Shown here: positions 13,727 to 62,698 of the stretch, in pieces
How the letters are laid out: each line of letters opens with the position of its first letter
Position numbering within the stretch: the stretch's first letter is position 1
NCBI GenBank assembly: GCA_013203785.1
Contig: JABMPJ010000161.1
Span: forward strand, 10,449 to 74,448
Direction of reading: 5' to 3'
From: Lentisphaerota bacterium
Lineage (GTDB): Bacteria; Verrucomicrobiota; Kiritimatiellia; UBA8416; JABMPJ01
DNA: 64,000 nucleotides
The notes under the pieces: model-generated
Told to the model about the DNA's origin: nothing
Databases searched by the model: none
The model's input: only the letters and a program-made list of their open reading frames with translations
Made by a program: the position numbers and the translations under genes

Positions 13727-14311
13727 ATGATGCCCTTTACACTGCCGTTGGGAACAGAGGCGCCGGATTTCAGTCTGCCGGCCACAGATGGAAAGCGCTA
13801 CAGCCTGGCCGACTTTGCCGAGAGCGAGGTGCTGGTGATCTTCTTTACCTGCAACCATTGCCCCTATGTCATCGGCTCAGATGAGGTGACCCGGGCCACC
13901 GCCAACCGCTTTAAAGCGCAGGGCGTGGCGTTCCTCGGAATTAACTCTAATAGTATCAATACCTACGCCGAAGACAGCTTCGATCATATGGTCGCACGTA
14001 TGAAAGAGCATCACTTCCCCTGGGTATATGCCCATGACCAGTCCCAGGAAGTCGCCGTGGCCTATGGTGCCCTACGGACGCCGCACTTCTATGTCTTCGA
14101 CCGCGCACGCAAGCTGGTCTATACCGGCCGCGCCATCGACACCCCGCGCAACGGAGCGCAGGCCACAATCAACGATCTGGACAACGCGCTGGAAGACATC
14201 CTGGCCGGACGCCCGGTCCAGACCCCCTTGACCAACCCGATCGGCTGCAACGTCAAGTGGGACCGCAAGGAAGCGCACTGGATGCCTGCCGACGCCTGTG
14301 ATTTGGTGTAG
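13727..14311 (+). CDS. thioredoxin-fold protein, AhpC/TSA / TlpA-like family (CxxC: FTCNHCPYV)
   Basis: ORF 13568..14311. Preferred start is ATG 13727, preceded by AAGGAGAG RBS. Motifs include [26 protein letters not shown]. Confidence 0.7.
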
Positions 14312-14974
14312 TTACTTCCTGCGGTTTCGTTTCCTGGCCTTCGCCGCCTGCTTCCGTTTGGCCTTCGCCTTCTTGCGGCTTGCGAGGTGAGGGCCAGAGG
14401 GTACCCCGGATGACCGAAGATGGTCCCCGTCCACCACCATATCCATGATCTGTTCGTCCTCATCGAGGATATATATAGGCTTCTCGCCGTTCCATGTTCC
14501 AAAGTAGTCGGGATCCTTCTTGCCGAAATAGTCTATGCCCACCACACGGCGGAAGGTGTAGCCATGCTTCACGCCGGTGGCCACCATCTGTTCATCAACA
14601 ATGACTGTCGGGCAGGTTGTGCAGAAGAAACCGGCCGGCGCAAGCATCGCGCGAGTTGCGATATCCGTGGCATAGATGAAATTGGCCGCCCTCCGCTGCG
14701 TCGCGGACTGACAAAGGGGACAGATCGCCACGTTCCCCAGGAACTTTTTCGAGTAGCCGTGGGTGACATTTCCTTCAAAAAGCGCGAGACCATTGCGCCG
14801 GATGACCTCCTCGGCCAATGCCTTTTGTGATTCCGCCTCAAAACTGTCGAGATCAACCGTTACCATCTTCCCATTGCGAAGAATACCGGGCTCCCTGCCG
14901 ACATCGGGGGTCACCGTCTCCTTCGTTTCGTCCACGCGCCTATTCTTCTCTCTAAATCGTTGGAACAGGTTCAT
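14312..14974 (-). CDS. hypothetical protein with two CxxC pairs and a polybasic C-terminal tail (KKAKAKRKQAAKARKRNRRK)
   Basis: 220 aa. ICPLCQ and FFCTTCP suggest a zinc ribbon; the tail suggests nucleic-acid binding. No family recognised. Its stop abuts the stop of the convergent gene at 14311 with 0 nt spacer. Confidence 0.45.
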   Translation of the reverse strand: MNLFQRFREKNRRVDETKETVTPDVGREPGILRNGKMVTVDLDSFEAESQKALAEEVIRRNGLALFEGNVTHGYSKKFLGNVAICPLCQSATQRRAANFIYATDIATRAMLAPAGFFCTTCPTVIVDEQMVATGVKHGYTFRRVVGIDYFGKKDPDYFGTWNGEKPIYILDEDEQIMDMVVDGDHLRSSGVPSGPHLASRKKAKAKRKQAAKARKRNRRK

Positions 14975-14981
14975 TCTTCCC

Positions 14982-15362
14982 TCATCTTCTCAGCGCCCTC
15001 CTGTAGCGCTGCATGCCACGCCGCACCAGCCCGCACGAGAACCGCGAGGCGATGACGAGACGGCCGTCAGCGACGACCGGTCGGCAGCTGATCGGTGCAG
15101 TTGGGAGGCGACGGTACATCCCACGTGCGAGACACCAGATAACCGGATGCGGCGAACGCAGAAGTATCCGCAGACATTCCTGCTCCATCGGCAAATGGAA
15201 ACCGCTGATAACGAGAACGCCTTCGTTCCGAAACCGCTTGGCGAGGTCATAGGTTTCGAGAATCAGTTTTCCCGGGCACTTGACGGAGCAGAACCGTGCG
15301 ACCTTGGGACGATCCAAGATTCCCGCGTCTCCGATAATCTGAATGGCTGGTTTGGCTGTCAT
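14982..15362 (-). CDS. short DprA/Smf-like (SLOG superfamily) Rossmann-domain protein, possibly a truncated remnant
   Basis: 126 aa. VLVISGFHLPMEQECLRILL...PVIWCLARGMYRRLP aligns position-for-position with the DprA core VVSGLAxGIDxxAHRGAL...TIAVLGxGLDxxYP. The downstream GRLVIASRFSCG resembles GxLlSExPxG. Too short for a full DprA Rossmann domain. Confidence 0.3.
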   Translation of the reverse strand: MTAKPAIQIIGDAGILDRPKVARFCSVKCPGKLILETYDLAKRFRNEGVLVISGFHLPMEQECLRILLRSPHPVIWCLARGMYRRLPTAPISCRPVVADGRLVIASRFSCGLVRRGMQRYRRALRR

Positions 15363-15565
15363 CGCTCAGTCTCAATCACTTGGGTTATCTCGTTTTACGT
15401 AGTTCCTGTCACGACCGATGATGGCCCCATTTGCCCCTTTGTGTCACCTTTGCTGCGTGAGCCATTCGCGAGCCATTTCCATCATCACTTCTCCGTGGCA
15501 CGTTTGGCGCGTTCTTGGCACGATTCGGTCTCTTGTTGCCGGATTCGTATTCTGGTGCGTTTGGT

Positions 15566-17050
15566 TCATTTATGGTGCGTTTGAGATGCGTTTGTTTGCC
15601 CCTTATGCCCCTTCATTGCCCCTTTCGCCACTCGGTAAAAGACGCCTCTCCCTGTAGTACCGACCTTCTCTACCAGTTTCATCTCTACCAACCCGGCCAG
15701 ATCAAGGGACGCGGTTCTCTTGGCAACAGAAAATGCCCGTTGATACTCCGTATTTGTCATGCGCCCGTGTGTCTTCATCAACCCAATGGCTCGGATTTTC
15801 CGCTCATTCAGGCCCAACTCATCTATCACCGCATCAGTAAGCCAATCACGCCAAATCACTGTGACAAACCGTTCTCCCTCACCGCGGAATTCCGGTTCCG
15901 GCAGACCGGCATCGGCGCACAACTGTATCATGTCGAGTGTCCCGGTTCCGGCCCGCTCGATATAGTGCGCCAGGTAGAGGGGTTCGCAGATCAAGCGATT
16001 GCGCGGAACGGAGGGATGCGGCCCTTTCAGCATGTCTGACGTCAGATCTTCCGGCAGGCCACCCGGATTCCAGATCTCGATGCGGTTGGCGAAGACCATG
16101 ACCTGCACGCCGGACTTGGAGGCATAGTTGCGATGGGCTACGGCGTTGACGATCGCCTCGCGTACAACCCGGAAGGGTACCTCATAGCTGACATCGCTTG
16201 CAGCCGACTTGTCGCTGGGCTTGACGGAGCGGTGCAGCCGGTCCATGACGAAATCCACGGCTTTGTCCACCACGTCAAACAAGGATCCATGATAGACTTG
16301 CTGGCTGGGGATAGGCTTTGCAATGGCGGTGCCATGGAAGTGCAGACACGTCACGTCAGCCGAACGGATAAACCGCTCCGGCGCGTCATTAAAGAGCAGG
16401 ATAGCGCCCCGTGTCGGTTTGCCTTTGGCGAGCAGGTTTAGGTGGGCCAGCGCCTCTTTGCGCGAGGTGTTGGGAGCAAGTGCATAGCTTCTTTCTGCAC
16501 GAGCCTTCTCTATAAACCAACGCATCTTTTGCGTCGAAATATCTTTGAGTGTAGCGTCATGGCAGGCAACTGCATCGAAATCTTTCGCCGCCACAAACCC
16601 ATGATCCTGTAGATACTGAATCAAGCTGCCGTAGAGCAGGCGCAGCATTTCGTCCGTATTCTCAAACCGCCGTCGGACAACTTCAGCCCCCGCACGTTCG
16701 ATCAGGGCCTTCATCATTGGCTTACGAGCCTTGTCGTCGCGTCCCTTCACCAGAATCAGGCGGCGTTTGCGAAGTCGCGTCGCTTCGGCGAACTCACGCT
16801 CCGTGGGCGACTGGCCACTATCGTCCGTCCATCCGTACTCGTTTCCAAAGACGCCGACGTAGATCGCGCTGTTCTTCACTTCATCGAGGTAGACGGCATC
16901 CGCCCGCCGATCCGCAGGCGGCAAGCCCTCAAACAGAAATACCCGGAAGAACTGCCGCAACAGGTCATGCCCATGAACAAAATCGCGCATGACATACCGC
17001 TCCGCCTGAAGCTCCTTCTGCACACTGCTTATGATTAATTGATCCATCAT
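15566..17050 (-). CDS. ATP-binding protein: DUF4062-like N-terminal domain + AlbA_2 (Schlafen-like divergent AAA) + HATPase_c_4 + C-terminal winged HTH
   Basis: 494 aa. The N-terminal block (LIISSVQKELQAER...SAIYVGVFGNEYG...SPTEREF) matches my recollection of DUF4062. AlbA_2 block ~190-300. HATPase_c_4 block VVREAIVNAVAHRNYASKSGVQVMVFANRIEIWNPGGLP. The wHTH lies in the last ~70 aa. The C-terminal low-complexity tail is encoded by short tandem DNA repeats. Confidence 0.7.
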   Translation of the reverse strand: MMDQLIISSVQKELQAERYVMRDFVHGHDLLRQFFRVFLFEGLPPADRRADAVYLDEVKNSAIYVGVFGNEYGWTDDSGQSPTEREFAEATRLRKRRLILVKGRDDKARKPMMKALIERAGAEVVRRRFENTDEMLRLLYGSLIQYLQDHGFVAAKDFDAVACHDATLKDISTQKMRWFIEKARAERSYALAPNTSRKEALAHLNLLAKGKPTRGAILLFNDAPERFIRSADVTCLHFHGTAIAKPIPSQQVYHGSLFDVVDKAVDFVMDRLHRSVKPSDKSAASDVSYEVPFRVVREAIVNAVAHRNYASKSGVQVMVFANRIEIWNPGGLPEDLTSDMLKGPHPSVPRNRLICEPLYLAHYIERAGTGTLDMIQLCADAGLPEPEFRGEGERFVTVIWRDWLTDAVIDELGLNERKIRAIGLMKTHGRMTNTEYQRAFSVAKRTASLDLAGLVEMKLVEKVGTTGRGVFYRVAKGAMKGHKGQTNASQTHHK

Positions 17051-17097
17051 CTCGCCATTGCGGCCATTACGAGACCTTGAGATTGTAAGTGGGAAAT

Positions 17098-18963
17098 CTA
17101 CAGCAGATGTTCCGCCTTGTAGTCATCATTGATGCAGTACCGGGGCTTGCCTTCCATGCGATGGATGAAGCCCGCTTTTTCCATACCGTTGAAAGCGCTT
17201 CTGGCCTTGCGAAGAAAACCATCGAACTTCTTGATGTTGCCGACTGCGACATGACTCTGGAACCACAGGGCGAGGCTTACTTGTCGTGCGCTGGGATAAG
17301 GGGTCTTCGAGTATCGGTTGAATCTGTAGACGATACTCAACAGATCTTTGCTGAAATCATGAAGCTGGTCGAAGGCTGCGCCATAAGCATCCCTCAACTC
17401 GACGATATGATCTCGCTTTAGCAGGAGACGATCGGCAATGTAAACCGGATGCAACGATGTGCTGCTCTGATGCTTGGAGATCAACCCCTTGTTTTCAAGA
17501 AACGAAATCTCGTTGAAGTGGTTGTTGTCGGGCGTGAGTAGAATTGTGTAGCGCAACTGCGCGTTTGCCCATTCTGACTTGATCAGGTAGGCAAGGATAC
17601 GCTTCTGCTGTTCGTTTAACGTTCGACCTTCCAGACGGTCCTCGATGTAGCGGTCGAAAGACAGAAACAGCGCTTCCATCCGGTCGTCCAAAAGTCGACC
17701 GGTGTTGAGAAACAGCCCGATGTCCGACTCCGAGTAGAAGCGATAGTACGGCAGATCAACGAGATTCTGTAAGCACAAGTCCACCATCGTCGCCATTCCT
17801 ATGCCCTTGCCTTCCCACTTGTTGAAGACCATGAGTACCATGGCCAGCTTGGGATTTCGCGGACGTGCCTCCGGTACAATACGCCTGACAGGAACGGAGT
17901 GGTCCGGCTCTTCGATAACCAGGTGTTTTCTGAAAGCGCCCGGATTTCGGATCTCTATATGGCTTCCCGGCTTGATCGTGATCGTAACATATTTGTCGAT
18001 AGAGTAATCACGATGCGCCAAGGCGTTGTTGACGGTCTCGCGAATCAAGGCCTGTGGATACTGGGGGGTTGCCGAACCGCCTTCATCCAGGCTTACCCCC
18101 ACCGGGATGTTTCTCATGACAAATGCGTTTGCCGCTTCCATGACGGGAAGTATGTTGCCGCTGATGACCTGCTTATCCTGAACAACGACCTGCGGGGCTT
18201 CCACATAACCATGAACGCGACAGCGAAACTGTAGATGGTCTTCGGGATGCTGACCGCAGACGAGCATGCCCAACGTCGTGACCTGGCCGTCTTTAACGAA
18301 GGCCTTCCGGCTGAGAAAGGACATAGCGGAATGGACATCCGGCTTCATGGTTTCCACTTTGGTCTGGCGATTGAGCAGCTGGATATACTCGTTGAGTTGA
18401 TCGATATCCAAGTCATTTGGTGTTGCGTTGGCAACCGGCATCAGTTCACGAGCTTGCAGGACATCTTCTTTGTATTCCTCTTGGCTCGATATTTCCGCTT
18501 CCGACAGCTTGTGATCACCTGTGAGAACACGGCGATAACCAACGCCATTCAAGAAACAGAACTTCTGATCGGCTGGAAGCTCATCCACGAAAACTACCGC
18601 CACCTGACCATCCATGAACGAGCGCAATTCCGGGTTCGGAAAAAGCGATTTCAGATCAAGCTTCCGTCCCTGACGATCCGTGAAGACCGCACCGAATTCC
18701 TTCAACTTCGGTTCCGCCTCGGAGCGGTAGCCTGTGAAGATGTAGCGGCTGGTTCCGGCTGACTGCTCTTCCTTTACTCCCAGCAACAGCACTCCACCAC
18801 GCGTATTGAGAAACGCATTGACGGTCTCATGTATGCTACGCCATTCCCCGCCGGTCGCGGGAACCGGTTTGATTTCGATTCCGTCGCTCTCCAACTCTTC
18901 AAACTCGCCGCCACGAATCAGCGGCTCCAGTTTTTCCAGCAATTGGTCTATGGTCTTGCGCAT
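17098..18963 (-). CDS. ATP-binding protein with two AlbA_2 (Schlafen-like) domains + HATPase_c_4 + long C-terminal domain
   Basis: 621 aa. First AlbA_2 at residues ~1-110 (GGEWRSIHETVNAFLNTRGGVLLLGV). Second AlbA_2 ~200-290. HATPase_c_4 motif LIRETVNNALAHRDYSIDKYVTITIKPGSHIEIRNPGAF. Paralogous to the upstream gene. Confidence 0.7.
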   Translation of the reverse strand: MRKTIDQLLEKLEPLIRGGEFEELESDGIEIKPVPATGGEWRSIHETVNAFLNTRGGVLLLGVKEEQSAGTSRYIFTGYRSEAEPKLKEFGAVFTDRQGRKLDLKSLFPNPELRSFMDGQVAVVFVDELPADQKFCFLNGVGYRRVLTGDHKLSEAEISSQEEYKEDVLQARELMPVANATPNDLDIDQLNEYIQLLNRQTKVETMKPDVHSAMSFLSRKAFVKDGQVTTLGMLVCGQHPEDHLQFRCRVHGYVEAPQVVVQDKQVISGNILPVMEAANAFVMRNIPVGVSLDEGGSATPQYPQALIRETVNNALAHRDYSIDKYVTITIKPGSHIEIRNPGAFRKHLVIEEPDHSVPVRRIVPEARPRNPKLAMVLMVFNKWEGKGIGMATMVDLCLQNLVDLPYYRFYSESDIGLFLNTGRLLDDRMEALFLSFDRYIEDRLEGRTLNEQQKRILAYLIKSEWANAQLRYTILLTPDNNHFNEISFLENKGLISKHQSSTSLHPVYIADRLLLKRDHIVELRDAYGAAFDQLHDFSKDLLSIVYRFNRYSKTPYPSARQVSLALWFQSHVAVGNIKKFDGFLRKARSAFNGMEKAGFIHRMEGKPRYCINDDYKAEHLL

Positions 18964-19054
18964 TGTTCACCTCGCAATCTGTCTCTTCTTCACTCCGACC
19001 CAGCGCCCCGCCCATGCGGTATTTGATGTCGTAATTGATGATGAAATCCACGCC

Positions 19055-19519
19055 TTACCCCCGTCCCAACCGCTGCGCCTGATGCACCAAGTCCTTACAG
19101 GCATCGCCGCACTGCTGGAACTCGGCTTGCGAATTGCCACAGACGGTGTTCGCGAAACGCCCGAAAGACGGAAGTCCCTTCTCGTCGGCGTTTGTGGGAA
19201 TCCCAACCATCAGCTGATCGCGAAAATCCTGGGCGAGCTTTCGCTTGAGAGCAATGGCCGTAGCCTGGTCGATTTGCTCCCCATCTTTGGCGAGACTCAT
19301 GGAATGCCGCAGTTGGTCCTGTGGCATTTGCTGCATGCCGACGAGCAGGCGGCAGCAGTGGCCCTCGCCGCCGGACCAATTCTCGATGGATTCGTGCAGT
19401 TGTCGCCATCCACGGAGGTTGAAATACCCGACGCAGAAGTCGCCACGGTGACAAAGCCCGAGCGTCTCCTGCAGGGCCGGCAGAAGTCTCTCCTCAATGT
19501 TGTCAAAGATGCGAGGCAC
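19055..19519 (-). pseudogene. truncated N-terminal fragment of a PLD-like nuclease / SF2 helicase-type defence protein
   Basis: 154 aa ORF MPRIFDNIEERLLPALQETLGLCHRGDFCVGYFNLRGWRQL...GHCCRLLVGM. The fDN..l..l......d..vGYFnlrGw...iRllvG pattern is typical of the N-terminal PLD-like domain fused to restriction/defence helicases. It ends before any HxK motif or helicase motifs, and only ~90 nt remain before the next gene. Confidence 0.45.
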
Positions 19520-20087
19520 TGTTTCTGTCCCTTCTCTCCGGCCTTTCCCGTCTTCGTGCTACACGCTACGCCGAGGCGCGGCCGGAGCGAACCCAATAAT
19601 CTGCTTCACCCTTCGTGAATTTCCGTGGTTCGCCGACCTTGTGTACAGGCCCTGCGAGGTCGGTCTTCACTGGCACTTTCTCTATGTCGAACATCAGCTT
19701 TTCTAGAGAAAGGGTTCTAGCCCCATTCTCTATGGTAAACAAGGACGGAATGCTTGGAACGGGTTGAAATGGTGCAAACGGAAATAGAGGCGCTTGCGAA
19801 TTCCCCACAGCAATGCTACATCAAAGCGCATGAGAGAGACGACCGCCATAGCAACCATTCCTACGGAGCACAGCGATTCAGAGCTGATTCGAGCGCTCTG
19901 CACGACGGGGGCCTATCAAACCCCTGCGGCAGGCCGACGCGTCGGGTGGAGCCGCCTGGTGGGTGGCTGGGATCCGTGGGTCTACTGGCGCGTCTACCTT
20001 ATTATGCGCGCGGGCTGCCGCGCCGCCAAGGGGGGGCGTCACACGGCGGCGGTGTGGCGTAGGGAGTCCGAGGGCCTCATCCAGATC

Positions 20088-20720
20088 ATGGAGGCCGCGG
20101 GCGGTAGGTTGATAGTCTCAGGGATGTCAGAGGCACTTGCGCTGAATGAACCGGTGGTCTTTATCGCCAACCACATGGGTATGCTCGAAACCTTCTTTCT
20201 GCCCGCCATCCTGATGGCCCACGGCGATGTATCCTTTGTGGTAAAGCAGAGTCTGCTCGACTACCCGCTCTTCGGCCCCCTACTGGGCGCCACCCACCCC
20301 ATCGCGCTGACACGCCAAGATCCGCGGGGTGATCTGAAGACCGTGCTGACACGCGGATGCGAACTGCTCAAGCAGGGCCGCTCCATTGTCATCTTCCCGC
20401 AGGCCACGCGTGCCTCGGCCTTTACGCCGAGCAAGTTCAACAGCCTGGGAGCCAAGCTGGCCGCCCGCGCGGGGGTCCCGATCGTGCCCCTCGCACTCAA
20501 AACCGACTTTATGCGCGTCGGTAAGTGGGTCCGTGACTTTGGCTCGCTCGACCGCGAGTTACCCATCTACTTCCGTTGCGCCCCACCGATTATGCCCCCG
20601 ATCAACAGCCGCGATGCCCAGGCCGAGGTCGTGGCCTTTATTCGGTGCTGCCTGACCGAGTGGGGCGGACAGATTGACGACGGAGAGGTCGCGGACGAAG
20701 AAAGTGAGCCTGAATCATGA
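20088..20720 (+). CDS. 1-acyl-sn-glycerol-3-phosphate acyltransferase-like (LPLAT/PlsC family)
   Basis: ORF 19794..20720 (TTG start). Preferred ATG is ~20088 (MEAAGGRLIVSGMSEALALNEPVVFIANHMGMLETFF...). NH(x4)E/D acyltransferase motif and FPQATR/PIVPLAL blocks. Start uncertain (+/-1 nt; see summary). Confidence 0.6.
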   Translation: MEAAGGRLIVSGMSEALALNEPVVFIANHMGMLETFFLPAILMAHGDVSFVVKQSLLDYPLFGPLLGATHPIALTRQDPRGDLKTVLTRGCELLKQGRSIVIFPQATRASAFTPSKFNSLGAKLAARAGVPIVPLALKTDFMRVGKWVRDFGSLDRELPIYFRCAPPIMPPINSRDAQAEVVAFIRCCLTEWGGQIDDGEVADEESEPES

Positions 20721-21124
20721 GTGAATCCATGTTACCAGATCTTCAATCGAGCCTGCTGTGCGATGACGTGCGCCAGGAGCGCAACGGAAAGTTCATGCTG
20801 ATCGGCCTTTTTGACGGGCTCGGCGTACCCCAGTATCCGGCCGTCTTCCAGAAACTCTGTCTCGTGAATCGCTGGTGCTGCGGCAGTGGCGAATTCACCC
20901 AGTCCAGCCGCATTATAGGAACGGATGGGGTCACCGTAGTGACGCAGGGCAAGGATGTGGCCCTACGCCTGCCCAATGACATGGCCACCGCGACCAGCGT
21001 GGAGATCTTCCTCAACGTGAAGCTGGAAACACCCGGCATCTACTGGGTCGAAGTGATGCTGAACGGCAACATGCGCATCCGCTACCCCCTCCAAGCCCGT
21101 GAGGTCAAGCAGGGGCAGGGCTAA
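20717..21124 (+). CDS. hypothetical protein
   Basis: 135 aa. ATGA start/stop overlap with the upstream acyltransferase. No family recognised. Confidence 0.4.
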   Translation: MSESMLPDLQSSLLCDDVRQERNGKFMLIGLFDGLGVPQYPAVFQKLCLVNRWCCGSGEFTQSSRIIGTDGVTVVTQGKDVALRLPNDMATATSVEIFLNVKLETPGIYWVEVMLNGNMRIRYPLQAREVKQGQG

Positions 21125-43827: not shown

Positions 43828-44886
43828 TCATATGTTTGACCTCTTCTCGCCTTTGCTCAGTCGTAGCGCCACCTTGTCGAAATCCGACTCCTTGTGGTCT
43901 TCTGCGACAATACATCGACGATTGAACGTCTCGTACTCGCCCTCGGCTCGCGCAACGGCCATCTCATGGGATATTTTTCCCGCGTGCGTCAGGATGTCTC
44001 GTTCATTCAAGTTTAGAAATGCATCCAGCTTGGCACTCCAGTCCGTCATGTGCATCGGGACACGCCGCATCGCTCGCCCCTCGGCAAAAATCAGGTATTG
44101 CTCGACCAGGTTGTTCAGCGCCAGAAGTTCCTCCTCGGCCAAGTAGTTCTTTGCGATCGTGACGTCTGCCTTACGCAGCTTGTTGCCGCGCCAATTTGTC
44201 AGCCCCATGTTCTTCTTCTCGGCATCGACACGGTCGTGGATGATTTCGGCAGCCGTCATGCCGGTTATGGCCCAGTGCATCTTGTTTTGCACGGTCCTGA
44301 AGAAGTCGATGCTGATTTCCTGCGTGGGATCATAGTCGACGCTCGTGGCGTAAATATCAGTGATCTTCTGGTAGAAGCGACGTTCAGACGTCCGTATATC
44401 CTGAATTCGCCGCAGGAGCTCTTCAAAGTAGTCGAACGGCTGGTCTGGATTCTTGAGTCGCTCATCGTCCAAAAGGAATCCCTTGACCAGATACTCACCG
44501 AGCCGTTGCGTGGCCCACTGGCGGAAACGCGTAGCCACATGGGATTTCACGCGATAACCCACGGAGATGATCATATCCAGATTGTAGTAATCCAATTCCC
44601 GCTGAACATTCCTTGCCCCCTCCTGGCGAACCGTTAAGGATTTCTTAACAGTTGCCTCCGGAGCCAACTCACCCTCCTCATAGACATTCCGGATGTGCAT
44701 GCTGATGTTAGGAACCGTGGTCTGAAACAGCTCTGCCATAAGTTGCTGCGTCAGCCAGACGGTCTCGTTCTCCAGGCGCACCTCGATACGGGGTGTACCG
44801 TCCGCATCCTGGTAGACCAGCACCTCGCCGTGGGATTCGGCCTTCTCGGGGCTGACAGAATCATATTTTGCTGGCTTGTTGCTCAC
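43828..44886 (-). CDS. rhuM: RhuM-family virulence/Fic-DOC-associated protein
   Basis: 352 aa. EVLVYQDADGTPRIEVRLENETVWLTQQLMAELFQ...YYNLDMIISVGYRVKSHVATRFRQWATQRL is the canonical RhuM N-terminal block. Confidence 0.8.
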   Translation of the reverse strand: MSNKPAKYDSVSPEKAESHGEVLVYQDADGTPRIEVRLENETVWLTQQLMAELFQTTVPNISMHIRNVYEEGELAPEATVKKSLTVRQEGARNVQRELDYYNLDMIISVGYRVKSHVATRFRQWATQRLGEYLVKGFLLDDERLKNPDQPFDYFEELLRRIQDIRTSERRFYQKITDIYATSVDYDPTQEISIDFFRTVQNKMHWAITGMTAAEIIHDRVDAEKKNMGLTNWRGNKLRKADVTIAKNYLAEEELLALNNLVEQYLIFAEGRAMRRVPMHMTDWSAKLDAFLNLNERDILTHAGKISHEMAVARAEGEYETFNRRCIVAEDHKESDFDKVALRLSKGEKRSNI

Positions 44887-45320
44887 ACCTTCACCTCCAC
44901 CGTGATGCTTGCATCTAAGCCAAATGTCTGTCCCACCTTCGCGCAGGCCGTGTATGTGCCCTTCAACGGGTCCTGTACAAGCACATCGGCAGGAATGCCC
45001 AATCCGTTGTAAAGCTTGCGAATCATAGCCAAACTCAGTGGGCGTTTCCGGTTCAATACCTCTGACACCTTGCTCTTGCTTCCGATATGGGGAACAAGAT
45101 CAGCCTGCTTCAATCCCTGCTGTTCCATGCGGAACTTGAGGGCGTCAATGGGGTCTGGCATGGCAATTGGATACTGCGCAGCCTCGAACTCCTCGACGAG
45201 ATGCAGAAGCAATTCAAGCTCATCGCCCTCGGCGGTGCCAGGGCTTGCATTGAATATCGCATCGATGCGCGCCAGTGCCGCTTCGTGGTCTGCTTTCGTT
45301 CTGATGAGTCGAACATTCAT
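44883..45320 (-). CDS. HigA-family HTH (XRE-type) antitoxin-like protein, no cognate HigB detected
   Basis: 145 aa. C-terminal GLKQADLVPHIGSKSKVSEVLNRKRPLSLAMIRKLYNGLGIPADVL matches the HigA block (GLT.SDL..IGSKS.VS.VL.GKR.LTL....KLA..FGISP). 4-nt overlap with the downstream rhuM. Confidence 0.6.
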   Translation of the reverse strand: MNVRLIRTKADHEAALARIDAIFNASPGTAEGDELELLLHLVEEFEAAQYPIAMPDPIDALKFRMEQQGLKQADLVPHIGSKSKVSEVLNRKRPLSLAMIRKLYNGLGIPADVLVQDPLKGTYTACAKVGQTFGLDASITVEVKV

Positions 45321-57638: not shown

Positions 57639-58628
57639 GTGACAATGCCAGGCAAACCATACCAGTCCAAACTGGCCCCGCATGAGGCCGAGATCTTCGA
57701 ACTGCGGGACAAGGGCGTTACATACCGAGCCATTGCGGAGCAGCTCAGTCTACGCCATGCCCTGAATGTCACCCACAATGCCGTCTTCTCGTTCCTGAAG
57801 ACCCGGGGCCCCACCCGCGGTGGTGGCCGGTTGTTCTACGAGGGATTCTCCCCAGATATCCGCGAGCAACTCCTCAAGCGAATCACGGCCGAGTGGACGC
57901 ACGACTCAACGGCGATTGAAGGCAATACACTTACGCTCGGCGAAACCATAAAGGTATTGGAGCTTGGCCTGACCGTCAGCGGCAAGCCACTGAAGGATCA
58001 CCAGGAGGTCTATGGTCATGCCCACGCCATTGACCTGATCTATGCCATGATTGCCCGAGCTGAGATTAGCGAAGACGATCTTTGCGATCTGCACCGTTCG
58101 ATCATGCATCAGGCTCCAGTCGATGCCATGAACCCCATCGGGGCCTGGAAGCGGGACTACAATGGAACCACGGGGGCCAGAGATGGGAAAAGCATCTACA
58201 TGGAATACGCAGAACCGGCGGCTATTCCCCGACTCATGAAACGCTGGCTCGGGGATTTCAACGGTACTGAAAAGTGTACGGGGCGGCCGGAGCAAGCCAT
58301 TGCAGCATATGTTCGTGCACACATGATTTTTGTCCGTATCCATCCCTTCTTCGATGGCAACGGCCGCATGGCACGTCTACTCGCCAACATCCCCGTTCTA
58401 CGTGGCGGCTTCCCGCCCGTGGTGGTTCCCGCAGAGCGTCGGTCCGACTACATCGGATTGCTGTGGGAGTATCAGAATGACGCCGGCACGATTCGCCCCG
58501 GCTCACGCCTCATGCCTCCGCACCCCGCCATCAGACAGATGGAAAAACTGCTCAAGAACGAATGGACCAAAACCGTCTCGCTCGTAGAGGAAGCCCTTAG
58601 GCGGCAGGCGGCAAGAAGCCACAAGTAG
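57639..58628 (+). CDS. fic: Fic-family protein (class II-like, N-terminal inhibitory [ST]xxxE[GN] motif) with N-terminal HTH-like region
   Basis: 329 aa. HPFFDGNGRMARLL Fic motif. STAIEGN inhibitory-helix motif. N-terminal AEIFELRDKGVTYRAIAEQLSL. Confidence 0.85.
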   Translation: MTMPGKPYQSKLAPHEAEIFELRDKGVTYRAIAEQLSLRHALNVTHNAVFSFLKTRGPTRGGGRLFYEGFSPDIREQLLKRITAEWTHDSTAIEGNTLTLGETIKVLELGLTVSGKPLKDHQEVYGHAHAIDLIYAMIARAEISEDDLCDLHRSIMHQAPVDAMNPIGAWKRDYNGTTGARDGKSIYMEYAEPAAIPRLMKRWLGDFNGTEKCTGRPEQAIAAYVRAHMIFVRIHPFFDGNGRMARLLANIPVLRGGFPPVVVPAERRSDYIGLLWEYQNDAGTIRPGSRLMPPHPAIRQMEKLLKNEWTKTVSLVEEALRRQAARSHK

Positions 58629-58770
58629 CGGGGATGTTCTACTCATGCCTCTCACTATTTACGGATCCACGAAGCTCTCGTGGACAAGGGACACCGGCTA
58701 TTTGTGGTGCGAGATCAGAGCTGAGTCCTCAGTGGCTGCGACAGGACGCAGCTAACCATGGACGTCTTTG

Positions 58771-59058
58771 TTATGCCGCCGCCAGTCTCTTGACGTGCAA
58801 CGCTTTGGGACTTTGTTCGGCCACCCAGAGATCGTATTGCACCTGCTGGTGCAGCCAGCTCTCCGGGGTTGTGTCGAACGCCTTTCCCAAACGCATGGCC
58901 ATTTCGGGACTGATCCCGGAGCGACCATTCAGAATGGCCGACAGGGTCTTCCTCGCAACGCCGAGCGCCTCGGCTGCGTCGGTTACGGAAAGCCCCAAAG
59001 GTTCCAGGCACAACTCTCGCAGGACCTCTCCAGGATGGGGGGGATTGTGCATTCTCAT
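58771..59058 (-). CDS. higA: HigA antitoxin (XRE-type HTH)
   Basis: 95 aa. [61 protein letters not shown]. Confidence 0.88.
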
Positions 59059-59070
59059 ATCTCTTCTCTC

Positions 59071-59349
59071 CTAATGATAGTCCTCGTAGTCAACATCGAT
59101 CACATCCGCACCATCGAACACGAATGTGATACTCCAATTGCCGCTGACCGAGACCGCCCATGTTCCCTTGCGCTTCCCCTTGAGCGGGTGCAATCTCAGT
59201 CCCGGCAAATCCATGTCCCGTGGAGACATGGAAGCATGTAGGCGACCAAGGATTAGCCTGATTCGCTTCTCATGCTTGGCTTGGATACCGGCCTTTGTGC
59301 CTTTCGTGAAATACCGCTCTAGCCCACGATGGCAAAATCCATTGATCAT
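59071..59349 (-). CDS. higB: HigB toxin (RelE/ParE superfamily, plasmid maintenance system killer)
   Basis: 92 aa. MINGFCHRGLERYFTKG...RLILGRLHASMSPRDMDLPGLRLHPLKGKRKGTWAVSVSGNWSITF. Toxin-first order, typical of higBA. Confidence 0.88.
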   Translation of the reverse strand: MINGFCHRGLERYFTKGTKAGIQAKHEKRIRLILGRLHASMSPRDMDLPGLRLHPLKGKRKGTWAVSVSGNWSITFVFDGADVIDVDYEDYH

Positions 59350-59684
59350 GATTCAACCGTAACGCGATACGTATCAGGTGGCAATCAGTTTCTTTATGAG
59401 GCATAACATTCAAGCTCTCCGGCGGCTGTAGGCCGCGCGAGAGCAGCGCTGTGTGGGGCATCTTCCGATTCGTGAGTGAAGCGTGTTTCCAGTTTCGATT
59501 CTGCTGACAAGCCTCGATCTCGAACGGTCGGCAACATGCCGACCCTCCCAAACGCCTTTAAAAAACATGTTTTGTGACGGGAGGGACGGCGTGTCGCCGT
59601 CCGCATAGGGGTTTTTCAGCAGAATCCAGTTTCTAAGTTTGACCCTGTCGCCTAATTGAGCGGTCACCGATATGGATGGCCCCT

Positions 59685-61190
59685 CTAGGCGGAACGAATT
59701 GCCGCCTCGATGCGCGTCACCTCCATATCAGACAGGAACTTGAAATGGCTGGTGCGCCTGTTGGCCGACAGGTGTCCATTGTTTTGCAGGCAGAATCGAA
59801 TGAACAGGTCGATCTGTCTGTCCGGCATGTCTACAACAGCCTGAATGGCCTGCTTGGTATGGTCGTAGTTGGCCAGGAATGCCAGTTCTTCTGCCAGTTC
59901 CGTATCGATGGTCTGTTCGATGAACCGGAATAGCGCCTCCGCTTGCGGCGTCATGTCGGTGTACTTGTACCAGATTGCCGTATCGTTCTGCACCGTCATC
60001 CGCCCCATCTCATCCAGTGAGTATTCCACAAGCATCATCAGAGGCTTGGAGAAGGCCTCCAGTGATGCGTCGTAGTCTGCTATGTTCTGCAGCATCGATG
60101 CAGATACGGGGAAAATGAAGCCAGCCGGTGTGAATCCGTGACGGGCAAGTATGTTGTGGATCAGGAAACGGTGAATACGTCCGTTCCCATCCTCGAACGG
60201 ATGCAGGAAAACGAATCCGTACGCGATGGCGGCGGCATGAATGACGGAGAACACCTCTCCTGTCTCCATCCTCTCGTGGGATGCGAGCAGCCCTTCCATA
60301 AGTTCAGTTACGTCCTGGGGTCGCGGACCGGCGAAATGGACCTTCTCCTTTTGCCAGGCTACGGTCTCGCCAACATAGTTCTGACTACCACGATAATCCG
60401 TATCTTGGAAGCGGGGGTCCACAGTACGGTTCTGTAGATCGATCAGGCGCCCCTTCTCGCAGAAATCCTCTTTTTCGGCCAAGTGGAGCAGAGAAACGAA
60501 GCGTTCCGTTCGGGTCGAGGTCGGCTTGATGTGCTCGATCTCGAAGGACGATTTCGTTTCCTTCTTGTAGAGGTAGCTCATGGCCCGTTTCAGTAATTCA
60601 GGGGGATACTTGGCAACAATATCCCGGCACCGTTCAGGAAGATTTGCTTCTTCGAAGGATCGCAATACTGCCGTACGGCGAATTGTGGGACAGAACCTGG
60701 CGTCCCCGAGCAGGTTGTCATTGATACGCTGGCGACGCACCCGACGGGGTTCGGCCATCGTGTAGTATTCGTCTGGATCGAGCAGATCGATGTATCCCCC
60801 GGTCCCAAGGTCAGCCAGGGGAAGCTCCACACCGGTGAGCATTTCGTATAGGAACCACACTCGACGGGTATATTTCCCCCTCGGCGCAGATGCGACATAC
60901 TGTTGGATTTCATCCTGAGGAGCCACCTTGAACACGCTGACAAGGATGGCCAGATTTGTCCCATCGTACTTGAGCGCAAATTGCAGATGGTCACCGAGCG
61001 TGTCCCCGGGCCAATACCGGGCTGGGTAGACTTCTTCGGTTACGCCTGCGGTCGTATCGACTCGATGTGTGTTTCCTGTGGCAACAAGAGATCGATGCCA
61101 GTTCGGTAGCACGTCTAACCCGAATTTCTCGATCAGTGCGCCGTACCCAGTCACCTTCATCCCCGTCGCATCTAAAGAGTGCTCATTCAT
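59685..61190 (-). CDS. large Fic-family protein
   Basis: 501 aa. HPFEDGNGRIHRFLIHNILARHGF Fic motif, preceded by a long N-terminal domain. Confidence 0.8.
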   Translation of the reverse strand: MNEHSLDATGMKVTGYGALIEKFGLDVLPNWHRSLVATGNTHRVDTTAGVTEEVYPARYWPGDTLGDHLQFALKYDGTNLAILVSVFKVAPQDEIQQYVASAPRGKYTRRVWFLYEMLTGVELPLADLGTGGYIDLLDPDEYYTMAEPRRVRRQRINDNLLGDARFCPTIRRTAVLRSFEEANLPERCRDIVAKYPPELLKRAMSYLYKKETKSSFEIEHIKPTSTRTERFVSLLHLAEKEDFCEKGRLIDLQNRTVDPRFQDTDYRGSQNYVGETVAWQKEKVHFAGPRPQDVTELMEGLLASHERMETGEVFSVIHAAAIAYGFVFLHPFEDGNGRIHRFLIHNILARHGFTPAGFIFPVSASMLQNIADYDASLEAFSKPLMMLVEYSLDEMGRMTVQNDTAIWYKYTDMTPQAEALFRFIEQTIDTELAEELAFLANYDHTKQAIQAVVDMPDRQIDLFIRFCLQNNGHLSANRRTSHFKFLSDMEVTRIEAAIRSA

Positions 61191-61230
61191 GAAACCTCCG
61201 TGAAAGAGAAGAACTACCCGTGAATAATAC

Positions 61231-61355
61231 GCCAGAATTGTGGCTGGTCAATAGAAACGCGCCAGACTAAGGTCATTTTTGGATGTTGTGAGAAAACAGT
61301 GCCAGAGTAGAGAACAGCATGCCAGAATATACATCCCCATGAAAGGTGCGCCAGA
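61231..61355. repeat. five direct GCCAGA hexamers spaced ~10n bp (61231, 61261, 61301, 61321, 61350) upstream of the large fic gene
   Basis: Spacings of 30/40/20/29 bp put all copies on one DNA face. Flanking context is (a/t)(c/g)GCCAGA(a/g). Confidence 0.5.
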
Positions 61356-61468
61356 GCTGCCATACTTTTTGCATGGTCCTGTTGAGAGGCCATCAGTGAG
61401 ATCTTCAGCTATTCAAGTCGGCAAGGTGAAGTCAATTACATGGCCCTCGGCAGCGTCGCCTTCGCGAT

Positions 61469-61519
61469 CCTATCCCGGTGATAACCAGCAAACACCGTTG
61501 CTGGTGACGACCAGGATAG
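61469..61519. repeat. ~51-bp imperfect palindrome with perfect CCAGCAA/TTGCTGG core
   Basis: CCTATCCCGGTGATAACCAGCAAacaccgTTGCTGGTGACGACCAGGATAG. Confidence 0.45.
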
Positions 61520-61748
61520 TAGTCACTCATGCGCCTATGAGCTAGTGCCTTGAATGTTATATGTTGATTCCGTTGAAAAACCCCCTGTTTCAGCCGCCCT
61601 CTGAGCCGCTGGGCGGGTAGTGTGGCGCGCGGCTCGTTGCCTCCTATCGGCCATGGTTTTCGGTGGTGGCCACCCTTCGGGCAACCTGGGGCGATCAGAG
61701 CTGGATTCTTTGCGACTGAACCAGCCGTGAACGGCGCAGAAGGCTCTC

Positions 61749-62279
61749 CTATGCCGCCTTCAGCTGCTTTTCGACCTCCCACCGGGACAAACGGAGCCAA
61801 CGGTTGATGTTGACGGCCGCCCCTTGAAAGTAGTTGGACAGAGTGGTCTTGGCCAGCCCTCGATATCGTGTGCGCCGACCTCCCCCGCGCGTGAACTCAC
61901 TGATGGTTCCCTCGATGGCATTGCGTCGATGCATCTTCAGCTTGAACTCATCGGTCTTCATATCACGCCGTCGTTGCTGCAAGAGGTCGTGATGCCGGCC
62001 GACCGATATATGCCGCCTTCCATCTTTACGCCTTGTGCACTGCTTCTGAAGCTCGCAGTCATCGCAGAGACCGGCCCACTCAAAGCGGTAGTAAGTGGAC
62101 GCATTGTAGCGGTCGTTGATCAGACTGATATGTTGAGACGTGACCCTTCCAGCCCTCTTCCAGCCCCCTTCCAGCCTCTCGGCCACCCAATCCGGGATGA
62201 TATCGGCCACTCTTGAGGCGGGATCGAAATGGGGGGCGATATGTGGCGGAATGCGCACCATGCCCGGCACACACGCCAT
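61749..62279 (-). pseudogene. C-terminal fragment of an IS5/IS1182-family DDE transposase (5' part missing)
   Basis: 176 aa. ...HRRNAIEGTISEFTRGGGRRTRYRGLAKTTLSNYFQGAAVNINRWL is the conserved C-terminal block of IS5-group transposases. N-terminal catalytic region is absent and vapC sits where it should be. Confidence 0.6.
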
Positions 62280-62314
62280 GCATCACGCGCTTTTGCGAGG
62301 CCGTTCGCGGCCTT

Positions 62315-62698
62315 TCAGGAATCACGTTGACGCAGTTGTTGGCTGTATTCGATGTTCATTTCCTTTGCCATGATCTGGAGCCGTTTGTCTCTCGTCCAGA
62401 GAAGACAAGAGTCAATGCAGCACGAAGCCAGGATGTGGGCATCGATCAACCCGATGCCTCGCCCCATCAGGCGGTGGCGCTCAATGAACAGAAGAATCTC
62501 ATCCTCTTCCACCTTGGTTGCATGGGGCAATGCATGAAGCAAAGCGATGATCTCCTTTCGGTTGCTCAGGTTGCCGCAAGCTAACTCGCCTAGGACGTAC
62601 GAATGAATCGTGACCTCTTCCGCTTCCAACAATGAGGAGAGATTGCCGCTTACCTTCCGGAAGTGGTCAATCCAGATCGAGGTGTCCACGAGTACCAC
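62315..62698 (-). CDS. vapC: PIN-domain ribonuclease toxin VapC
   Basis: 127 aa. MVLVDTSIWIDHFR...acidic residues D6, E, D at PIN positions. Confidence 0.85.
   Translation of the reverse strand: MVLVDTSIWIDHFRKVSGNLSSLLEAEEVTIHSYVLGELACGNLSNRKEIIALLHALPHATKVEEDEILLFIERHRLMGRGIGLIDAHILASCCIDSCLLWTRDKRLQIMAKEMNIEYSQQLRQRDS

Follow-up and report, generated by a model that had tools for sequence, protein, structure and literature searches.

A DUF4062 protein and a predicted Schlafen protein on a shared GHKL ATPase–winged helix chassis: two candidate single-gene immunity genes in a probable mosaic defence island of a Lentisphaerota genome

DUF4062 is a TIR-like NAD+-hydrolysing (NADase) domain, renamed NIR in 2026, which relies on one catalytic glutamate and is the effector of the Swarozyc, Evangelion, Vulcan and Vesta systems and of some Avs2 proteins, acting through NAD+ depletion and abortive infection (10.64898/2026.05.01.722283; 10.64898/2026.06.25.731849; 10.64898/2026.09.04.749371). 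The catalytic residue is E97 in the Swarozyc protein KpSwz, E87 (followed by Y88) in the Evangelion protein Eva01, and E108 in PsAvs2; the substitution F11A abolishes defence by Eva01. In KpSwz (PDB 10wc/11cq/11cv), an AUX domain of the winged helix-turn-helix (wHTH) type binds the phage portal, not DNA (10.64898/2026.05.01.722283). Here, these and related systems are compared with two adjacent genes, g3 and g4, in a 64,000-nucleotide (nt) stretch of DNA (hereafter the window) from a Lentisphaerota bacterium (GenBank assembly GCA_013203785.1, contig JABMPJ010000161.1, positions 10,449 to 74,448), where they lie within an insertion at window positions 14312 to ~19829.

The second group of relevant proteins is the prokaryotic Schlafens (SLFN), whose characteristic domains are tRNases with an Ex4(E/D)xK motif and are most often partnered by 'HisKinase' (i.e., GHKL) domains, with or without an HTH domain (PMC13056530). 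This combination is the commonest prokaryotic Schlafen architecture, estimated at 34% plus 19% (PMC13056530) and at 58.6% (10.64898/2026.05.29.728809), and the pairing of SLFN with PF13749 has been named the 'Schlatpase' supradomain (10.64898/2026.05.29.728809). In RzAgo, an Argonaute fusion, ATP binding to the GHKL domain (residues E314 and N318) leads to tetramerisation, and thereby to assembly of the Schlafen nuclease (10.64898/2026.05.29.728809). For proximity to defence genes, the published figures are 20% versus 3.9% in the case of NIR and 69.6% in that of the prokaryotic Schlafens (pSlfn).

Five minus-strand open reading frames (ORFs) inside 14312-19829 are labelled g1 to g5, and L-numbers denote comparison loci from other genomes. 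The interval is probably a small mosaic defence island, reshaped by deletions, with two intact and independent single-gene immunity candidates, g3 and g4. More tentatively, the g3 family could quite possibly be a type of one-gene phage defence not described before, with the Schlatpases' GHKL-ATPase-wHTH chassis controlling a DUF4062/NIR NADase. An earlier annotation made from the DNA letters without database searches (the sequence-only reading) had held that the combination of genes matches no named system; this is superseded by the DUF4062 systems (Swarozyc, Evangelion, Vulcan, Vesta) and the Schlafen/'Schlatpase' proteins, described in 2025-2026. The two intact candidates are as follows:

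15566 to 17050, minus strand: g3, intact, 494 amino acids (aa); predicted DUF4062/NIR TIR-like NADase domain (residues ~1-150, predicted catalytic E86), linker/middle domain, GHKL ATPase (PF13749; E298...N302) and C-terminal wHTH.
17098 to 18963, minus strand: g4, intact, 621 aa; predicted SLFN/AlbA_2 RNase domain (E25-x4-E30-x-K32), GHKL ATPase (E309...N313), wHTH-like region and an extra C-terminal domain of ~120 aa.

The g3 protein matches Pfam DUF4062 (PF13271) over residues 7-90 with 57.8 bits (cutoff 24.7) and HATPase_c_4 with 72.5 bits, and nearly all of the top 120 homologues listed also carry PF13271. Within the motif S81-x-T83-E84-x-E86-F/Y, which is invariant in 29 homologues together with E84 and E86 themselves, E86-F87 corresponds to the pattern of a catalytic glutamate followed by an aromatic residue that is found in DUF4062/NIR domains; the GHKL residues E298 and N302 are also invariant in 29 homologues. 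A profile of the g3 family aligns with the DUF4062 domain of KpSwz (PDB 10wc) over g3 residues 3-170 (E-value 2.8e-8), and E86 falls opposite an alanine of the deposited chain, presumably the E97A substitution of the construct. When an AlphaFold2 (AF2) model of g3 (pLDDT 83.7) was searched with Foldseek, the best match for the whole chassis was PDB entry 3lmm (E 1.6e-13), further matches were PDK1/PDK4-type GHKL and MarR-type wHTH structures, and the N-terminal domain matched nucleoside deoxyribosyltransferase (NDT; 8pqt, TMt 0.57) and the TIR domains of MAL, SARM1, RPS4/RRS1 and L7 (TMt 0.46-0.65). The modelled N-terminal domain thus appears to have the TIR-like, or nucleoside-deoxyribosyltransferase-like, flavodoxin fold.

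Public gene calls for g3 (P0001, 474 aa) begin 20 codons downstream, and because this start is too late, strand beta-1 of the DUF4062 domain is lost from them (affected segment 16991-17050). In favour of the 494-aa start are 28 homologues and a Pfam match that begins at residue 7. The family comprises at least 3,406 matches, with 55-75% identity in NC10, Desulfobacterota, Kiritimatiellia and Lentisphaerota, members of Desulfobacterales, Syntrophales and Kiritimatiellae among them; relatives on Legionella plasmids are ~49% identical over g3 residues 4-401. These DUF4062+GHKL proteins occur in L188 (NZ_CP021275.1 35955-37526) and on 12 other Legionella plasmids, including pLPP of strain Paris, and are annotated as two pieces in seven of the records listed. 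A single plasmid was looked at closely; it is of the conjugative type, and its g3 homologue stands alone, adjoining a par/rep module.

In g4, the window copy scores 23.7 bits against PF04326 (SLFN_AlbA_2; cutoff 25.3), with only the first 44 profile positions aligned, and 21.3 bits against PF13749 (HATPase_c_4), also below the cutoff. All 24 aligned family members match PF04326 at E<=0.01 (best 6e-8), and all 24 match PF13749; a g4-family profile gives weak matches to SLFN12/5/14 (E 0.2-0.9). The three residues of the predicted catalytic motif, E25-SDGI-E30-I-K32, fit the published Ex4(E/D)xK pattern and are invariant in 24 homologues, as are the GHKL residues E309 and N313. Members of the family are ~620 aa in length and number 1,330 matches, with 55-62% identity in Verrucomicrobiota, Nitrospirae, Competibacter and Sumerlaeota.

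The two proteins resemble one another over their downstream parts. BLASTP aligns g3 165-389 with g4 179-408 at 24% identity, and hhalign of the two family alignments pairs g3 161-464 with g4 175-499 (98.5% probability, E 2e-15). In the alignment with phrog_12156, g4 is covered from profile position 40 and g3 only from position 153. By these alignments, the middle domain, GHKL ATPase and wHTH are a chassis common to g3 and g4, and their N-terminal domains differ; PF04326 has no match in g3, which aligns with g4 and with phrog_12156 only downstream of the Schlafen region. By sequence comparison, DUF4062 takes the place of the Schlafen domain in g3. The sequence-only reading, which had described two paralogous AlbA_2/HATPase proteins, was correct for the GHKL-wHTH part and not for the AlbA_2 domain it assigned to g3.

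Among described systems, Swarozyc is like g3 in its homologous N-terminal DUF4062 domain and stalk, in the conserved position of the catalytic glutamate (E86 in g3), and in being a single gene with a patchy, horizontally transferred distribution. The remaining parts differ: KpSwz is a protein of 326 aa with a portal-binding HTH/winged AUX domain, whereas g3 has 494 aa with a middle domain, a GHKL ATPase and a MarR-like wHTH. No similarity between g3 and KpSwz was detected outside the DUF4062 region (residues 3-170), which places g3 outside Swarozyc. Evangelion, Vulcan, Vesta and Avs2-NIR share with g3 the layout of a DUF4062/NIR effector with the E-aromatic motif on a variable sensing region. 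In each case the partner is different: a short AUX region in Eva01, HEAT repeats in Vulcan, an alkaline phosphatase gene in Vesta, STAND plus TPR in Avs2, and GHKL-wHTH in g3. The texts of the DUF4062 and Schlafen literature and one supplement, figures not covered, make no mention of a GHKL/HATPase_c_4 or Schlafen partner for DUF4062.

The Slfn-HisKinase(-HTH)/Schlatpase proteins resemble g4 in having SLFN_AlbA_2 (sub-threshold in the window copy of g4) with Ex4ExK, a PF13749 GHKL domain and an HTH region, and in their association with restriction-modification (R-M) genes (here in L086/L091 and in a methyltransferase stub beside g4). They differ in that g4 belongs to a distinct subfamily of ~620 aa with the extra C-terminal domain of ~120 aa. 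Relative to these proteins, g3 has kept the ATPase-HTH half and lost the Schlafen half. The protein found in 3lmm, DIP2311 of Corynebacterium diphtheriae, which was deposited by a structural-genomics effort as an 'uncharacterized protein', combines GHKL with a C-terminal wHTH as g3 does, and gives a sequence-profile match (1.1e-5) in addition to the structural one; identity is 16-17%, and no DUF4062 domain was detected in it in the searches run.

We infer the defence function, triggers and enzymatic activities of g3 and g4 by analogy with these systems. On this basis, g3 is a predicted NADase and g4 a predicted tRNA-cutting enzyme, and the two are likely independent abortive-infection genes. 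In g4, ATP binding to the GHKL domain may lead to oligomerisation and assembly of the Schlafen active sites, by analogy with RzAgo (its Schlatpase module) and RorSlfn5; once the wHTH or the C-terminal region had sensed a phage cue, tRNA cleavage and translation arrest would follow. In g3, the same chassis would govern the NIR NADase, with a phage cue relieving autoinhibition as proposed from Swarozyc, Evangelion, Vulcan and Avs2-NIR, and the activated protein would hydrolyse NAD+ at E86 and arrest growth. If this is true, the GHKL-wHTH chassis would be a general ATP-dependent sensor and oligomerisation platform with swappable effectors, either tRNase or NADase, and the window displays both predicted versions next to each other. 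If g3 is a working defence gene, the DUF4062 NADases and the prokaryotic Schlafens, recognised only in 2025-2026, would be joined through one regulatory chassis, and the same scaffold with different effectors would offer a natural experiment on GHKL-wHTH sensing and ATP-driven effector switching.

The setting of these genes is an insertion between two core genes, as the sequence-only reading had proposed for ~5.5 kb at this position. Its borders are formed by:

13730 to 14311, plus strand: left flank, core gene of the redoxin/AhpC-TSA family (Pfam Redoxin, 2.7e-23), 79-81% identical in L006/L007.
19520 to 19829, no strand: right border, 310 nt of non-coding DNA from a helicase stub to the start of plsC; homology to relatives resumes at ~19839.
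19830 to 20720, plus strand: right flank, core plsC-like acyltransferase gene (Pfam Acyltransferase, 3.3e-17), whose N-terminus aligns with L006/L007 from the ATG at 19830.

For comparison, 80 NusA-anchored loci were taken from species-representative genomes and all window proteins were mapped onto them. The two closest relatives are L007, a Victivallales metagenome-assembled genome (MAG) with NusA 88% identical, and L006, a Kiritimatiellae MAG with NusA 81% identical. Gene order is kept in both, as cvpA-dnaG-DUF6941-plsC-redoxin-nusA-infB in L007 and, on a shorter contig, as plsC-redoxin-nusA-infB in L006. At the DNA level, the spacer from the redoxin stop to the plsC ATG measures 25 nt in L007 and 17 nt in L006, and no homologue of g1 to g5 occurs at the redoxin-plsC locus of either. 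Because the homologous plsC ATG follows the redoxin gene directly in these relatives, 14312 to ~19829 is a real insertion, and it probably split a redoxin-plsC operon. Three starts were compared for plsC: the mechanical ORF (19794), the public 253-aa gene call (19959) and the ATG indicated by the relatives' alignment (19830). The last is most likely the true start, and the right edge, formerly placed at 19793, is corrected accordingly to ~19829.

All five minus-strand ORFs are present at the coordinates originally assigned. The redoxin stop TAG (14309-14311) touches the g1 stop (complement of 14312-14314), so that the abutting convergent stops at 14311/14312 with zero spacer are borne out, as is the lower guanine-cytosine (GC) content of the interval (0.549 versus 0.599 in the rest of the window). 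The GC content of g4 is 0.525 (z = -3.0 against 47 other ORFs), and the interval ranks first in tetranucleotide deviation among 117 sliding 5.5-kb windows. The identical arrangement is found in two independent assemblies, Logan SRR28106102 and JGI 3300033274.

As to the origin of the insertion, the genes may be cargo in the decayed remnant of a self-mobile element (an integrative island or transposon), an unlikely explanation and one that is compatible with a mosaic defence island. The abrupt insertion at a gene end and the deviant composition would fit such an element, as would the g3 homologues found by Tn3 transposase genes (L185) and by a Y1 transposase gene (L005). However, no recombinase domain (integrase or transposase) was detected by Pfam in the five ORFs, there is no tRNA gene in the whole window to serve as target, and the borders show only short, chance-level repeats in place of flanking direct repeats, terminal inverted repeats or att sites. 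The scan of viral contigs (IMG/VR) recovered one g3 orthologue and no g4 homologue, and g1, g2 and g5 have no PHROG match; on these grounds, a phage origin of the interval was rejected. As a mosaic island, the locus would have originated by insertion into the redoxin-plsC spacer, with deletions afterwards.

Homologues of g3 occur in varied surroundings. In L003, the homologue lies in a broken type I R-M locus, where a 638-aa neighbour was considered as a g4 relative and rejected for lack of similarity; the neighbourhood in L004 is without a recognisable defence or mobility gene; and in L005 the homologue adjoins the Y1 transposase gene. The L185 homologue (74% identity) precedes YhcG/GmrSD/Tn3 genes. 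There, and also in L186 and L187, a 109-aa ORF with no Pfam match (L185:4223-4552) starts 3 nt after the stop of the g3 homologue. Next comes a YhcG/DUF1016 nuclease gene, with GmrSD_C and Tn3 transposase genes beyond it in L185; in this lineage, the 109-aa ORF could serve the g3 homologue as an accessory partner. Among g3 homologues, the one nearest the window copy (84%) is in L093-096, where the contig ends before the region upstream of it. This homologue is followed by an intact DprA-like gene (94%) and then not by g1 but by a CBASS-type cyclase (PADLOC Cyclase, 1e-94). The g3-g2 adjacency is the only one in the island that recurs elsewhere. In these loci (L093:1315-2583, also L094-L096), the DprA-like gene of ~190 aa lies 27 nt upstream of the CD-NTase-type cyclase of 221 aa, which covers 211 of 295 profile positions, and the DprA-like/SLOG gene could be paired with the cyclase.

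Homologues of g4 are distributed independently of g3. In L086/L091, the homologue is next to an intact HKD-SNF2 helicase gene, a type IIG R-M gene and a kinase gene, and g4-type genes thus adjoin the HKD-SNF2/type IIG pair in two different arrangements, that of the window and that of L086. This proximity to R-M genes fits the published Schlatpase/R-M link (10.64898/2026.05.29.728809) and is only an association. Because homologues of g3, g4 and g1 sit in unrelated neighbourhoods without each other, the island is read as a mosaic and not as one system.

Several observations weigh against a defence island with two working immunity genes. Position 6 of g3 is isoleucine in the window copy and phenylalanine in at least 90% of the family; judged from its place in strand beta-1, Ile6 would be equivalent to F11 of Eva01, and because Ile6 replaces the family phenylalanine and the matching substitution F11A inactivates Eva01, the window copy could be impaired. 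Homologues of g4 stand alone among housekeeping genes in L088, L090 and L184, with no defence neighbour in several cases. PADLOC 2.0 calls no system in the interval (g4 does match pAgo-associated PADLOC models), and consensus scans of the interval for promoters and terminators did not rise above shuffle expectation. No phage-defence phenotype is on record for the exact architectures of g3 and g4, nor is any phenotype reported for stand-alone Slfn-GHKL-HTH proteins in the DUF4062/Schlafen literature covered, and tested Slfn-HisKinase fusions gave no detectable defence in Escherichia coli in one published screen (PMC13056530). A wHTH is present in both proteins, for which annotation as transcriptional regulators is routine, and the intact gene g1 (see below) finds no explanation in this reading.

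Some of these points are shared by the idea that g3 and g4 are ATP-dependent wHTH regulators or nucleic-acid binders that travel with mobile DNA and R-M genes, for example as controllers of R-M or plasmid functions. The C-terminal wHTH of both proteins, the source annotation 'predicted HTH transcriptional regulator', the Legionella plasmid homologue by par/rep genes, the g4 homologues among housekeeping genes and the outcome of the published screen (PMC13056530) all speak for it. This explanation is nevertheless improbable, in that both families keep the predicted catalytic residues of their effectors unchanged across phyla, which a pure regulator would not need. Moreover, experiments on other architectures have validated DUF4062 and SLFN as defence effectors, and the wHTH-type AUX domain of KpSwz binds a phage portal instead of DNA (10.64898/2026.05.01.722283).

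It is less probable still that g3 and g4 form a two-gene system, in which the paralogous GHKL chassis would hetero-oligomerise and fire tRNase and NADase on one signal. The genes are adjacent, co-oriented and 47 nt apart, and in RzAgo the GHKL domain, part of the chassis common to both, drives homo-tetramerisation. Against this, the g4 of L184, 89% identical, is followed by a cytochrome c assembly gene and has no g3 beside it, and a g4 homologue is found in 0 of 5 distinct g3 contexts and a g3 homologue in none of the g4 contexts, with the qualification that in L093-096 the upstream side of the closest g3 homologue is missing. Two independent single-gene candidates remain the preferred reading of g3 and g4.

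The other parts of the island include three truncated genes:

14982 to 15362, minus strand: g2, 126-aa ORF, truncated DprA-like gene (PF02481; PsyrA/ShosA-type); only codons 1-108 (15362-15039) are homologous, and the last 18 codons are junction sequence.
19055 to 19519, minus strand: g5, 154-codon ORF, remnant of an HKD(PLD)-SNF2 helicase gene; homology is confined to codons 1-116 (19519-19172), beyond which the ORF is junction sequence.
18983 to 19051, minus strand: the last 23 codons of a type IIG restriction-methyltransferase gene (3'-end stub); tblastn hit of L091 methyltransferase residues 1100-1122, 70% identity, E 5e-4.

The g2 homologues are 185-220 aa long and cover ~86% of g2. A tblastn search with the intact relative P0241 (94% identity) ends at g2 residue 108, the remaining part was not found anywhere in the window, and DNA identity of g2 to L093 stops at 15039. 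P0241 matches PsyrA (7e-18) and ShosA (2e-7) in PADLOC (PDLC03927 and PDLC03961), as well as Pfam DNA_processg_A. The g2 family differs from PsyrA/ShosA as a stand-alone domain of ~190 aa without a visible PsyrT/ShosT partner (in the interval, PADLOC detects a homologue of neither) and, in L093-096, with the CD-NTase-type cyclase following it.

The g5 ORF has no Pfam match. Its first 116 aa are 66% identical to the N-terminal end of a PLDc_2+SNF2 protein with 1134 aa (L091:176-3580), which matches PADLOC C3a139 'HKD+Snf2' at 5e-47. The methyltransferase stub, an addition to the inventory of five genes first listed, lies just upstream of g4; 41 nt of it are 95% identical to the end of the L091 type IIG gene, whose product (1122 codons) matches PADLOC REase_MTase_IIG over its full length (E=0). 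Identity to the two ends of the HKD-SNF2 and type IIG pair of L086/L091 (PADLOC C3a139; DISARM DrmD/DrmMI-like) is 66-70% for g5 and the 18983-19051 stub. Unlike in that set, the HKD motif, SNF2 core and methyltransferase domain are all gone. As only 116 of 1134 and 23 of 1122 codons survive at the two ends, ~6.5 kb of helicase and methyltransferase sequence, including every catalytic domain, has by this comparison been deleted from the island.

The full order in L086/L091 (CAYYJS010000002.1, GCA_964472315.1) is an RHH gene, the g4 homologue (62%), the HKD-SNF2 helicase, the type IIG R-M enzyme, a PD-T4-6-like Ser/Thr kinase, unknowns of 403 aa and 180 aa, and a DprA-like gene (71% to g2). It looks as the corresponding part of the window island would without decay, and could be a multi-gene system in its own right.

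The stubs g2, g5 and the methyltransferase remnant are debris of ordinary defence-island turnover, of which the locus is a textbook case: a spacer of 17-25 nt has become a 5.5-kb patchwork in a poorly studied phylum. The defence-island character first suggested for the interval is upheld by its genes for a Schlafen-GHKL and a DUF4062 NADase-type protein and by what remains of HKD-SNF2, type IIG R-M and PsyrA/ShosA-like DprA genes. As a correction, g2 and g5 are truncated stubs and not short genes, and the alternative first suggestion of two decayed systems comes near the truth for these two. By contrast, an undescribed module of all five genes, the main reading first suggested, for which their single strand, short spacers and defence-type domain content throughout would speak, is highly improbable: a single five-gene system is contradicted by the truncation of two of the five genes (g2 and g5) to stubs without catalytic parts and by the non-conserved linkage, given that g1, g3 and g4 are each found elsewhere without the others and that intact relatives pair with other partners (type IIG R-M and a kinase for g5, a CBASS cyclase for g2).

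The fifth ORF is the one adjoining the redoxin gene:

14312 to 14974, minus strand: g1, intact 220-aa zinc-ribbon protein with invariant C85, C88, C118 and C121 (CPxC...CxxC) and W161, and a conserved polybasic C-terminal helix.

The g1 family is rare (174 representatives among 1.84 billion), and a few relatives swap the polybasic tail for a SEC-C motif or have DUF1186 upstream of the tail. Among 57 loci, no conserved partner was found, and the neighbours are a mix of housekeeping genes with a few R-M, toxin-antitoxin and transposase genes. The 221-aa product encoded after the intact DprA-like gene of L093 was rejected as a g1 homologue: the two show no similarity, and the L093 gene is the CBASS-type cyclase. 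We regard g1 as an intact orphan gene and an unrelated passenger in the island.

Elsewhere in the window, a low-GC patch (0.54) at 43828-45320 contains a gene for a RhuM-family protein (PF13310, 2.5e-112; 43828-44886, minus strand) and an ORF overlapping it upstream (44883-45320) with a weak HTH_31 match; this patch probably represents one more small accessory insertion. Low GC also marks a second accessory region, at 57639-62698, which encodes two Fic/DOC proteins (57639-58628, plus strand; 59685-61190, minus strand), a DDE_Tnp_1_6 transposase fragment (61749-62279, minus strand) and a PIN-domain toxin (62315-62698, minus strand). Adjacent to the right flank, a DUF6941 gene (20717-21124; PF22091, 6e-24) overlaps the plsC stop by 4 nt. 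It is also near plsC and dnaG in L007, L015, L017, L019, L020 and L029, and this proximity, kept in several relatives, suggests that the DUF6941 gene is a core gene in this clade.

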